Shown: one piece after another, positions 54,452 through 58,195 of the stretch | Layout of the letters: every line of letters starts with the position of its first letter | Position numbering within the stretch: the first letter of the stretch is position 1 | Origin: Escherichia coli | GTDB taxonomy: Bacteria; Pseudomonadota; Gammaproteobacteria; Enterobacterales; Enterobacteriaceae | DNA length: 64,000 bases | Reading direction: 5' to 3' (one strand) | Assembly: GCF_016026235.1 (NCBI RefSeq) | Contig: NZ_CP065613.1 | Notes under the pieces: model-generated | The model's input: only the letters and a program-made list of their open reading frames with translations | Told to the model about the DNA's origin: nothing | Databases searched by the model: none | Position numbers and translations under genes: made by a program

Positions 54452-56893
54452 ATGAGCACTGATAAAGAAGAATTTGCACTATATTGCGAAGCAAAAAATG
54501 ACAAAGTAAGAAAACGCCTGGGAATTAAAGGTGGTTTTTACTGGACTACAGCAAAAAAATTATCTGTTGCAATCTCCCGCTGCATTACCGCAATGGATGA
54601 CAACGATTATGATGAAGACGACTTTAAAAAACCCGTCCGCGTCAATTTGCCCGTTGTTGACGACCTTCCGCCAGAAGGCGTGTTTGATACTGAATTCTGC
54701 AACCGCTATGAAAAAGGCGGGAAAGATGGCATCACAATGACATTTATCGGCCCTTCCCCCTCTGTTCAGGACAAATCAGCCAGCACTGATAATACCAACA
54801 TCAACGGCGAAGACATGACTGAGATTGAGGAGAGCATGCTTCTACCTGTCTCCGGTCAGGAACTGCCCATTCGTTGGCTTGCTCAACACGGCAGCGAAAA
54901 ACCAGTAACGCACGTTTCACGCGACGAACTCCAGGCATTACACATTGCACGGGCTGAAGAACTACCGGCTGTTACTGCCCTGGCTATTTCGCATAAAACC
55001 AGTCTGCTCGACTCGCTGGAGATTCGCGACCTCCACAAACTGGTTCGTGACACTGACAAAGTTTTCCCTAATCCTGGTAATTCAGACCTGGGACTAATAA
55101 CTGCTTTTTTCGAAGCATACCTGGACGCTGACTACACTGATCGGGGCCTGCTGACAAAAGAGTGGATGAAAGGAAATCGTGTTTCACGCATCACCCGCAC
55201 GGCTTCCGGTGCTAATGCTGGCGGTGGGAACAAAACCGATCGCAATCCGAATTTAGTACACACCCTCGACACACTGGATGTGGAGATTGCAGCAGCCACA
55301 CTTCCGATGGATTTTAATATTTATGAAATTCCGGGCAGCGTTTATCGTCGCGCAAAAGAAGTAGTCCTGAAAAAAGAAAGTCCGTTCAAAGAATGGTCCG
55401 CAGCACTTCGTGCAACCCCGGGTATTCTGGACTATTCCCGCGCCGCTATTTTTGCACTTATCCGAAGCGCACACCCTGAATTTTATCACTACCCGGGACG
55501 CCTTCAGGGGTATATCAACGCCTATTTGACGGAAACTGATCACGAGAACCCCAGCAAGGAAACTCTCACAGCTACCCGGCATACGCCGGAAAAAGATATC
55601 CTGGAAGAAATTAACCGCGAGGTGGTTACTGAGCGTGAAACAGAAGAAGAAAAACCACAACCATCTGACGCAATGGCAGGTGAACAGGCAACAACTGAAA
55701 CAATGGAACCGGATACAACTGAACATTGCCAGAACGCGCAGTCGCTGGATGCTCAGTCGCAGGTGAGTTCCGCTAACCAAGTAAAAGTCACCGCTGACGA
55801 AGTAAACAAAATTATGCAGGCAGCCAATATCAGCCAGCCTGACGCCGATAAGTTACTTGCTGTATCGCGTGGTGAATTTGTTGAGGGGATTAGCGACCCT
55901 AATGATCCGAAATGGGTCAAGGGGATCCAGACTCGCGATTCTGTGAACCAGAACCAGCATGAATCGGAACGGAACGACCAAAAAGCGGAACAAAACAGCC
56001 CAAATGCGTTACAAAACGAGCCAGAAACGAAACAATCCGAACCAGTAGCGCAACAGGAACCGGAAAAAGTCTGCACCGCCTGCGGTCAGAGCGGTGGCGG
56101 CAACTGCCCTGATTGTGGCGCGGTGATGGACGACGCAACATACCAGAAAACATTCGATGAAGAGAATCAGGTTGAAGTTCAGGAAAATGATCCGGAGGAA
56201 ATGGAAGGCGCTGAACATCCACACAAGGAGAATGCTGGCAGCGCTCAGGACCACGCCAGCGATAGTAAAACTGGCGAGACGGCAGATCCCTTAATTACGG
56301 TGAATGGTCATCACGAAATCACATCCACCAGCAGGACGTGTGACCATCTAATGATCGACCTTGAAACCATGGGAAAAAATCCTGATGCCCCGATCATCTC
56401 AATAGGTGCAATATTTTTCGATCCGCAAACCGGAGATATGGGACCCGAATTTAGTAAGACTATCGATCTGGAAACTGCTGGCGGAGTCATTGATCGGGAC
56501 ACCATTAAATGGTGGCTTAAGCAATCACGCGAAGCGCAATCTGCCATTATGACCGATGAAATCCCGTTAGATGATGCACTGTTACAATTGCGGGAATTTA
56601 TCGACGAAAACTCCGGTGAATTTTTTGTTCAGGTCTGGGGAAATGGAGCCAACTTCGACAACACGATTTTGCGCCGTTCATACGAACGGCAGGGGATCCC
56701 CTGCCCGTGGCGTTACTACAACGATCGCGATGTACGCACAATCGTTGAGCTGGGGAAAGCCATAGACTTCGATGCCAGAACGGCTATTCCATTCGAAGGT
56801 GAGCGCCATAATGCACTTGATGACGCTCGTTACCAGGCAAAATACGTTTCAGCTATCTGGCAAAAACTGATCCCGAGTCAGGCTGATTTTTAA
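54452..56893 (+). CDS. RecE-like exonuclease VIII family protein with C-terminal DEDDh 3'-5' exonuclease domain
   Basis: 813 aa; central region resembles recalled RecE ([19 protein letters not shown]); C-terminus has DnaQ-like motifs ([26 protein letters not shown]). Confidence 0.65.
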
Positions 56894-56951
56894 TGTTCAA
56901 CCCTAATTGCCGCTAACCGTATATAGTTAGCGGCGGTTATGAGATATAGCT

Positions 56952-57155
56952 ATGAGCAGCTTATTTTTAACCGAAGATGAATTGCTAATATTAACGGGCT
57001 GCAAATATGCAAGCCACCAGCGAAAATGGTTAATGGAAAACGGGCTTCCGTTCTATACCAATCGTAGTGGCAAACCGATTGTCAGCCGGGATCTATTTAC
57101 CTGCAATAAAACTTTACCACCACGCGAGGTAGAGCCGAATTTTGGTGCGATCTGA
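56952..57155 (+). CDS. xis: excisionase
   Basis: 67 aa immediately upstream of and overlapping integrase start. Confidence 0.6.
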   Translation: MSSLFLTEDELLILTGCKYASHQRKWLMENGLPFYTNRSGKPIVSRDLFTCNKTLPPREVEPNFGAI

Positions 57156-58195
57156 TGGGAAGACGAAGGAAAAATCCTGAACACGAAAAATTACCTCCAA
57201 ATGTATACCCAAATAAATATAGTTATGTATGGAAACCAACATCCAGAGAATCTGTAACACTAACCGCCATCAAGGATGGTTTAGCTGCTTTATGGAAAAA
57301 GTATGAGGAAACTGTAAATAATCGCGATCGTGCAATGACATTCGGTCGCTTGTGGGAAAAATTCCTCGCCAGCGCCTATTACAGTGACCTCAGTCCAAGA
57401 ACACAAAAAGATTATCTGCAACATCAAAAAAAGTTGCTTGCCGTATTCGGTAAGGTGTCGGCAGATTCCATAAAACCAGAACACATCCGTCGATACATGG
57501 ACAAGAGAGGGGAACAGAGTAAAACGCAAGCCAACCATGAAAAAAGCAGTATGTCCCGCGTTTACAGTTGGGGGTATGAGCGAGGGTACGTGAAGGCTAA
57601 CCCATGTGCAGGTGTAAGTAAATTCAAGGCCAAAAACCGCGAACGATATGTAACCGACAAAGAATACCAGGCAGTATTAAGCGTTGCACCTCTTCCTGTT
57701 TTTATCGCAATGGAAATTGCCTATCTGTGTGCAGCGAGGGTTTCCGATGTGTTATCGCTGAAATGGGAGCAGATTGGAAACGACGGGATCTTTATCCAGC
57801 AAGGGAAAACAGGAAAAAAACAGATAAAAGCATGGAGTCCACGATTACAGGCGGCGATCGAAAAAGCAAAACAGTTACCAAAATCTGCCTATGTGATCAG
57901 CAATCAATACGGCAACCGATATATGTACAAAGGCTTTAACGAAATGTGGGTAGATGCAAGAAATCGTGCTGGAAAAATTTCAGGTATTTTAACCGACTTC
58001 ACCTTTCATGATCTGAAGGCGAAAGGAATTTCAGACTATGAAGGAAGCAGCCGGGATAAGCAACTTTTCTCTGGTCACAAAACCGAAGGGCAAGTGCTAA
58101 TCTATGACAGGAAGGTTAAAGTTTCACCAACACTTGATGTCCCGTTACCTGAAAATATTCCAAGAAAATATTCCAAGTGTGATTTTTGTCACTGA
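57155..58195 (+). CDS. int: tyrosine-type site-specific integrase
   Basis: 346 aa, C-terminal HxLR..Y catalytic region, adjacent to tRNA attachment site. Confidence 0.85.
   Translation: MGRRRKNPEHEKLPPNVYPNKYSYVWKPTSRESVTLTAIKDGLAALWKKYEETVNNRDRAMTFGRLWEKFLASAYYSDLSPRTQKDYLQHQKKLLAVFGKVSADSIKPEHIRRYMDKRGEQSKTQANHEKSSMSRVYSWGYERGYVKANPCAGVSKFKAKNRERYVTDKEYQAVLSVAPLPVFIAMEIAYLCAARVSDVLSLKWEQIGNDGIFIQQGKTGKKQIKAWSPRLQAAIEKAKQLPKSAYVISNQYGNRYMYKGFNEMWVDARNRAGKISGILTDFTFHDLKAKGISDYEGSSRDKQLFSGHKTEGQVLIYDRKVKVSPTLDVPLPENIPRKYSKCDFCH

Follow-up and report, generated by a model that had tools for sequence, protein, structure and literature searches.

We analyzed a 64,000-nucleotide stretch of Escherichia coli DNA (contig NZ_CP065613.1 of assembly GCF_016026235.1; hereafter, the window) and focused on a prophage gene that encodes a RecE-like protein with an unrelated exonuclease domain at its C-terminus. 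A preliminary description of positions 54,452 to 58,195 had pointed out an 813-amino-acid (aa) protein of this kind, with xis and int as the next genes and nothing for an annealing protein in between. The gene is indeed there: a complete open reading frame (ORF) at 54452..56893 on the plus strand, with Pfam and NCBIfam matches, encodes 813 amino acids. It is the final gene of an early-left operon. After it come xis (56952..57155, plus strand), which encodes a 67-aa excisionase (DUF4224; Pfam PF13986, 2e-15), and int (57155..58195, plus strand), which encodes a 346-aa tyrosine integrase (Pfam PF00589 and integrase SAM-like domains). As described, no annealing gene lies between.

Upstream of the exonuclease gene, also on the plus strand, are the small RNA DicF (53759-53810; Rfam RF00039, 76.7 bits), dicB (53985-54173; Pfam DicB), and ydfD (54170-54358; Pfam DUF1482). 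This order matches the annotation of related genomes and of the Qin prophage of E. coli K-12. The plus-strand genes of the early region encode a cI/DicA-like repressor, a PaaA2/ParE pair, YdfA (DUF1391), YdfC, DicF, DicB, YdfD, the exonuclease, the excisionase, and the integrase. This is the gene order of a Qin/Rac-type early-left operon, with the exonuclease gene occupying the place of recE.

The prophage is inserted beside mtfA and is bounded by 62-nucleotide direct repeats that correspond to the 3' portion of tRNA-Ser(cga). The tRNA gene, which is the integration target, was identified with ARAGORN at 58223..58312 on the minus strand. A repeat search and alignment placed attR, the 62-nucleotide repeat, at 58223-58284 and attL at 14184-14245, with 3 mismatches to attR, so the prophage is about 44 kb long.

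A RecE-family protein with a different nuclease

The N-terminal scaffold of the protein (aa 1-360; 54452..55531, plus strand) belongs to the RecE family and has three compact predicted domains, at about aa 1-100, 120-240, and 270-360. Within it, aa 57-189 (nucleotides 54620-55018) match PF06630 (Enterobacterial exodeoxyribonuclease VIII, Exonuc_VIII; 7e-36). A whole-database word search with aa 1-360 returned only near-identical partial entries from E. coli, with no added diversity.

The scaffold is followed by a linker (aa 361-631; 55532..56344, plus strand) that is acidic and polar by its composition profile. AlphaFold2 gives this linker low confidence, with a predicted local distance difference test (pLDDT) score of 30-55, which is given for aa 440-627. 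Inside the linker is a "mid module" (about aa 450-616) that is common to RecE and to the YdfE-type variant discussed below, and which is present in 80/80 related loci. In alignment A2, its conserved columns span aa 464-565. The mid module includes a zinc-ribbon-like CxxC...CxxC motif (C541, C544, C552, and C555; 56072..56119, plus strand), which was recognized from the sequence. The four cysteines are invariant in alignment A2, the motif is also found in RecE, and there is a weak match to PF12773 (DZR).

The C-terminal head (aa 632-803; 56345..56860, plus strand) is a DEDDh (DnaQ-like) 3'-5' exonuclease domain of the Rv2179c/DexA type. The match to PF16473 (Rv2179c-like 3'-5' exoribonuclease) has an E-value of 8e-68 and a score of 228.1 bits, as compared to a gathering score of 27, and spans profile positions 2-177 of 177. 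The DEDDh C-terminus that the preliminary description had proposed was thus found, together with all five catalytic residues (see below).

The similarity to RecE ends abruptly before this head. BLASTP aligned aa 58-616 to residues 50-592 of K-12 RecE (58% identity over 566 columns) and found no significant similarity to K-12 RecE past aa 616 (RecE residue 592). NCBIfam's model for exodeoxyribonuclease VIII (NF007259) matches aa 1-616 at model positions 1-603 of 877; the score (942) falls short of the cut-off (1269), as nothing in the protein corresponds to the nuclease domain at the last ~270 model positions. The resemblance to RecE had initially been placed in the central part of the protein; the protein is RecE-like, but the similarity covers the N-terminal three quarters.

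The same boundary is seen in the DNA. In blastn against the Rac prophage, the window is 75-92% identical to K-12 recE in blocks up to position ~56295, and in a three-way DNA alignment, identity is lost within a few bases past the codons for "...ETADP(L/V)I". The recE homology ends at codon ~615 (56290..56300, plus strand) for both DNA and protein, and this is a classic mosaic joint, just before the ordered fold of the RecE nuclease. The nuclease domain of RecE is reported to be residues 564-866, and the N-terminus of RecE is described as "of unknown function" (PMC11611040). The 813-aa protein has no Pfam match to the PD-(D/E)xK nuclease of RecE (PF12684), and the search of the PDB did not match the RecE structure.

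The DEDDh exonuclease head

The head is predicted by AlphaFold2 to have a DnaQ-like (RNase H-like) fold at aa ~629-809, with a pLDDT of 84-96. The catalytic set (D636, E638, D736, H786, and D791) is invariant in an alignment with T4 DexA and the standalone homologs. The sole sequence match in the PDB is T4 DexA (8KEL/8KEN; aligned to aa 633-766, 1.8e-6), and DexA is also the best fold match in the PDB, according to Foldseek (3e-9). The top Foldseek matches, all with a probability of 1.00, are DexA followed by the DnaQ domain of a Cas2-DnaQ fusion, REXO2, RNase T, and Orn. The PDB sequence search gave no match of the head to Rv2179c/NrnC-type proteins.

Among 49 unique DNA variants of the head, all 49 lack stop codons and encode the complete DEDHD set, and the ratio of nonsynonymous to synonymous polymorphism (pN/pS) is 0.24. 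This points to purifying selection on the head, and the active site is intact.

In alignment A1, two residues of DexA differ from the head. DexA W152 aligns with Tyr756; the standalone homologs keep the tryptophan. D169 aligns with Ala770, with Asp772 two residues further on; because identity in the alignment is about 25%, the position that is equivalent to D169 is uncertain.

The type of head predicts whether RecT is nearby

No annealase family was found among the ORFs of the early region when we ran Pfam on every ORF. Also, tblastn with RecT, Redβ, Erf, the Sak4 of HK620, λ Exo, Gam, Abc2, and the C-terminal domain of RecE found nothing in all 64 kb. So the absence of a RecT partner from the window, which the preliminary description had noted, was borne out by both searches. 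The two findings that might have overturned its view of the protein, a canonical RecB-like nuclease domain of RecE and an overlooked recT gene, did not turn up in the window.

We then compared loci that are anchored on the DEDDh domain to loci that are anchored on the RecE nuclease. RecT was present in none of the 80 DEDDh-anchored loci, as compared to 80/80 of the RecE-nuclease-anchored loci. RalR and RcbA show nearly the same split (0/80 vs. 77/80 for each). DicB was found in 71/80 of the DEDDh-anchored loci. Each set of 80 consists of close relatives and does not represent 80 independent observations, so we also examined diverged representatives.

All three of the diverged DEDDh-type homologs, whose matched parts show 32-51% identity to the query, have xis/int directly next. 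Two of the three diverged PD-(D/E)xK-type homologs have RecT directly next. At the third PD-(D/E)xK-type locus (L103), a 271-aa protein of phrog_3657, and not RecT, is at the RecT position, and this is an open case for the association between head and RecT. Because of its RecT-like position and size, the phrog_3657 protein is a candidate for an unrecognized annealase. It (L103:7565-8380) has no match in Pfam.

The type of head predicts the neighbor: only the PD-(D/E)xK head is accompanied by RecT, and the diverged lineages largely agree. Furthermore, the complete genome of phage mEp460_ev081, which encodes the 823-aa sister variant, has no RecT, Bet, Erf, or Sak4.

Two cluster representatives in alignment A5, P0244 and one other, have a RecT domain in the same polypeptide as the RecE N-terminal scaffold (in P0244, RecT is at aa 516-703). 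Proteins of this type could be true fusions or could reflect a frameshifted or misassembled recE-recT.

Prevalence, variants, and annotation

The arrangement is not an unusual one. The 594 bases that encode the DEDDh domain are found in 4068/5426 complete E. coli genomes, at 8109 places, with up to 7 per genome, and nearly all of the E. coli copies are at least 95% identical. DNA that covers recT and the RecE nuclease domain is found in only 1750/5426 complete genomes, at 1841 places. Among the "RecE-like" genes of E. coli, the DEDDh form is in the majority, and there is nothing rare about it.

The databases already annotate a 3'-5' exonuclease. In RefSeq, genes from E. coli genomes that are 98-100% identical are named "exonuclease" or "3'-5' exonuclease", and the name "3'-5' exoribonuclease domain-containing protein" is also used. 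Several PHROGs families cover the exonuclease gene. Phage records ON470612, ON470619, ON470583, OV696610, PV340562, and LR597641 are labeled "exodeoxyribonuclease VIII" or "exonuclease VIII, ds DNA exonuclease". As the RecE nuclease domain is absent, the exodeoxyribonuclease VIII label on these phage copies is a propagated misannotation.

The N-terminus varies across 80 IMG/VR loci whose heads are at least 97% identical: there are RecE-like types of 811-818 aa and of 847 aa, and a type of 823-835 aa is more frequent. The exonuclease ORF is shortened in about 16 of the 80.

When aa 1-616 were compared to 1.84 billion cluster representatives, only 264 relatives were found, which implies that the scaffold family is small. 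Among the 79 representatives of at least 450 aa, 15 have a DEDDh domain and 20 have a PD-(D/E)xK domain, so both heads recur on scaffolds that are only 30-50% identical. Another 43 of the 79 (in the set P0241-P0389) have neither type of head and no other Pfam domain. Some of these headless representatives may be partial, and others may end in additional C-terminal modules of kinds not yet described.

The family of the head is a large one in phages, with 1618 phage records, including dexA of the T-even phages, and the head also exists as a standalone gene of ~180-190 aa. For instance, Salmonella prophages have a standalone 189-aa homolog (L092:7001-7570) in the corresponding slot, with xis and int immediately after it. 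In phage 1720a-02, a standalone homolog (L089:6998-7570) is among ea-type accessory genes, at the end of the early-left operon and before xis and int. These two standalone homologs are ~189 aa, are about 60% identical to the head, and are on unrelated prophage backbones. Upstream of the Salmonella homolog, YfdP, YfdQ, and a DndB-like protein are encoded. Two diverged DEDDh-type lineages encode an Rrf2-family protein of 112 aa (L097:4522-4860 and L100:4521-4859) immediately before the exonuclease, at the site that dicB and ydfD occupy in the window.

K-12 YdfE is a remnant of the 823-aa variant

The 823-aa variant is the commonest among the 80 IMG/VR loci. Its N-terminus (in L020:6123-8591) is 95% identical, over 255 aa, to YdfE from the Qin prophage of K-12 (L091:5579-6343), which indicates that ydfE is the 5' remnant of a gene of the 823-aa type. 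K-12 keeps only the first 255 codons because the gene is cut by an IS2 element (IS2E).

The YdfE/823-aa type shares the operon dicB, ydfD, exonuclease, (xis), int with the window, and the 823-aa type has the mid module as well as a DEDDh domain that is 97-99% identical to that of the window's protein. The first ~260 residues are unrelated: YdfE begins with "MSKVFICAAIPDE...", while the window's protein begins with "MSTDKEEF...". We considered whether K-12 YdfE might be the ortholog of the N-terminus of the window's protein and rejected this, as there is no similarity between them; YdfE matches the 823-aa variant instead.

Other features of the window

On the minus strand of the early region, Pfam on the ORFs identified the Q antiterminator, RusA, DUF968, Hok, DUF4406, DUF977, and an Ead/Ea22-like protein. 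Also encoded on the minus strand are a protein of 387 aa that matches nothing in Pfam, a YdaT-like protein, and a Cro-like protein with a helix-turn-helix domain. Just downstream of the Q antiterminator region is a cluster of four tRNA genes (Gly-tcc, Thr-tgt, Lys-ttt, and Met-cat) at 43365-43674 on the minus strand, inside the prophage.

The genes for the PaaA2-type antitoxin and ParE toxin pair (52123-52607) separate the repressor gene of the prophage from ydfA. The closest E. coli matches lack this stretch; their similarity begins only at ~52717.

Low GC content (0.41-0.47) marks both the DNA left of attL and the prophage's left end (4000-16000 and 14250-17500). The low-GC stretch around attL probably reflects another island or cargo genes.

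On the other side of the prophage, near-identical repeated ORF fragments are found on the minus strand of 59700-64000 (for example, at 62492-62944 and 63293-63553). Because they overlie the gene for a giant protein with Ig-like domains, which is annotated downstream of tRNA-Asn in related genomes, we regard them as tandem Ig-like repeats and not as real genes.

What might the enzyme do?

We propose, with a probability of roughly 0.6, that the 813-aa protein is a domain-swapped paralog of RecE that acts alone on the 3' ends of DNA, and that DexA-like degradation or trimming during lytic growth is its likeliest role. T4 DexA, the closest of its relatives to have been characterized, is described as degrading products of host DNA and as trimming 3' ends in double-strand-break repair and in intron homing (database annotation; PMC12153337). 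The RecE-family scaffold and the disordered acidic linker, with its zinc ribbon, carry a catalytically intact DEDDh head of the DexA/Rv2179c type, and this head stands where RecE has its PD-(D/E)xK 5'-3' nuclease. Given its place in the early-left operon, the gene would be expected to be expressed upon derepression of the prophage.

DEDDh enzymes remove nucleotides from free 3' ends, so the enzyme would work by itself to digest DNA from such ends, which might be duplex ends, 3' tails, or oligonucleotides. RecE and λ Exo digest the 5' strand and leave a 3' tail for RecT or Redβ to coat. The DEDDh head would have the opposite polarity and would not yield 3' single strands for RecT-type annealases. 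As 3'-5' digestion would remove the very strand that an annealase needs, a RecET-type mechanism seems implausible, and the inability of a 3'-5' enzyme to serve an annealase would explain why an annealase gene is consistently lacking. The preliminary description had suggested a role different from that of RecET; the absence of RecT from all of the DEDDh-anchored loci, as compared to its presence in all of the RecE-nuclease-anchored loci, supports this, with the polarity argument as the more conjectural part.

Several points weigh against this proposal. The head is only about 25-28% identical to T4 DexA. PF16473 takes its name from an exoribonuclease, and Orn, REXO2, and RNase T are among the structural neighbors of the head, so RNA or short oligonucleotides could be the substrate. 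We found no structural relative of the N-terminal scaffold, which could steer the enzyme somewhere unexpected. Expression from the early-left operon is suggested by gene order, while a promoter and terminator scan for the exonuclease gene's own promoter did no better than chance (the counts equaled the shuffled expectation). Pfam and tblastn recognize known families only, so unrecognized annealases could have escaped them, and the kinship within each set of 80 loci reduces the weight of the comparison with RecT. More generally, DNA 3' ends as the substrate, the timing of expression, and the biological role are what we infer from the family, the gene order, and the neighbors.

The main alternative role would be the exclusion of other phages. 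An E. coli homolog of DexA, EcD ("HREX", HAK9828821.1), is reported to digest T4 DNA, which contains 5-hydroxymethylcytosine (5hmC), to spare unmodified double-stranded DNA, and to protect against T4; in the same study, Escherichia accounted for 38% of the bacterial homologs of DexA, and W152 and D169 of DexA were needed for activity on 5hmC DNA (PMC12153337). Similarly, our protein might be a prophage exclusion nuclease that prefers the 5hmC DNA of T-even phages and protects the lysogen or the induced cell. The head is homologous to DexA; its DEDDh domain is by far the commonest of its kind that we saw in E. coli (in 4068/5426 genomes); and the slot beside xis/int is typical for accessory genes and also houses the standalone homolog. 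However, EcD is a different protein and is known for this activity from a single paper, the residues equivalent to DexA W152 and D169 are not present at the aligned positions (Tyr756 and Ala770), and no PADLOC defense model matches. A gene in the early-left operon is also expected to be repressed in lysogens, and this one has no evident promoter of its own. We consider exclusion to be an unlikely but reasonable alternative. That the head acts instead as an exonuclease on RNA 3' ends or short oligonucleotides, as a nanoRNase or an Rv2179c-type enzyme would, seems less likely still. The Pfam family has the exoribonuclease Rv2179c as its defining member, the fold neighbors include Orn, REXO2, and RNase T, and NCBI names many copies "3'-5' exoribonuclease", but the best match for both sequence and fold is DexA, a DNA exonuclease, and the head takes the place of a DNA nuclease, on a scaffold that is otherwise devoted to DNA recombination. 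Also, DEDDh enzymes of the DexA/Rv2179c group often take both DNA and RNA, so an RNA exonuclease would partly overlap with the DNA 3'-end enzyme that we favor.

It is very improbable that this is an ordinary system of the RecET type in which an annealase or a nuclease domain has been overlooked, or one that relies on an annealase encoded elsewhere. Many phage records do say "exodeoxyribonuclease VIII", the match to the RecE model over the N-terminal 616 residues is strong, RusA is encoded in the nin region, and help in trans is conceivable because recT is on another prophage in 1750/5426 E. coli genomes. On the other side, there is no PD-(D/E)xK domain; the NCBIfam score is under the cut-off; RecT, Redβ, Erf, and Sak4 are absent from the window, from 80 related loci, and from phage mEp460_ev081; and 3'-5' polarity would destroy the strand that an annealase binds. 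In particular, a canonical RecE with a missed recT was rejected given the results from Pfam, NCBIfam, the PDB, BLASTP, and tblastn, and is largely refuted. We see just as little chance that the gene is a decaying or chimeric pseudogene without a function. It is in a prophage and its relatives are often truncated, as with the IS2-interrupted ydfE of K-12 and the shortened ORFs in about 16/80 loci. Yet its frame is intact across 813 codons, the 49 unique variants are all free of stops with the full catalytic set and a pN/pS of 0.24, the same architecture recurs on scaffolds that are just 30-50% identical, and the gene is present in complete phage genomes of the plaque-forming type.

More speculatively, the N-terminal scaffold of RecE might be a general platform for delivering nucleases, with interchangeable heads, in the lambdoid phages of enterobacteria. 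The DEDDh version would then be not a recombination enzyme but a phage-versus-phage weapon (HREX-like and specific for modified DNA) or an anti-defense enzyme that clears nucleic-acid signals with 3' ends. We doubt that this broader idea holds, but if it does, most of the "RecE/exonuclease VIII" genes of E. coli have a function that has never been studied.

Whatever its role, about three quarters of complete E. coli genomes carry the exonuclease gene, often in several copies. It encodes a very common, intact, and conserved phage enzyme, with DNA salvage, end trimming, and phage exclusion as candidate roles. The label of exodeoxyribonuclease VIII wrongly implies a RecET-like 5'-3' recombination nuclease, and distinguishing the two heads corrects the annotation. 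The association between the heads and RecT also affects surveys for prophages that are capable of relaxed homologous recombination. Finally, the K-12 pseudogene ydfE gains an identity. Our searches of the literature for this architecture, for phage Rv2179c proteins, for the dicB/ydfD/exonuclease operon, and for ydfE found no study of the full-length protein or of the relationship between head and RecT.

Comparison with known systems

The Rv2179c/NrnC-type exoribonucleases (PF16473) are similar to the head in that the family match, at 228 bits, greatly exceeds the cut-off of 27. However, they are small cellular exonucleases for RNA or oligonucleotides, whereas the domain described here forms the head of a large protein that is encoded by a phage at a locus for DNA recombination.

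T4 DexA shares the DEDDh fold and the catalytic residues with the head, and is also a phage-encoded 3'-5' DNA exonuclease. Besides its low identity to the head, DexA differs in being a standalone protein of 227 aa with extra loops, whereas the window's protein has a 630-aa N-terminal extension.

EcD, like the head, is an E. coli-encoded homolog of DexA with an intact catalytic set, and both start with MID-x-ET. But the cloning primer for EcD encodes MIDTET and the head has MIDLET, and EcD was expressed as a small standalone protein. The sequence of the EcD forward primer has no counterpart in the window or in any of the 184 loci that we retrieved, so the link between the 813-aa protein and EcD is indirect.

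RecE from the Rac prophage of K-12 is in the same slot of a Rac/Qin-like early-left operon, and the PF06630 region, the mid module, and the zinc ribbon are present in both proteins. RecE ends in a PD-(D/E)xK 5'-3' nuclease (PF12684; the region of structure 3H4R), where the window's protein has a DEDDh 3'-5' exonuclease instead. The neighbors also differ at the two loci: recE is followed by recT, ralR, and rcbA, while the window lacks these three genes and has xis directly next to the exonuclease.

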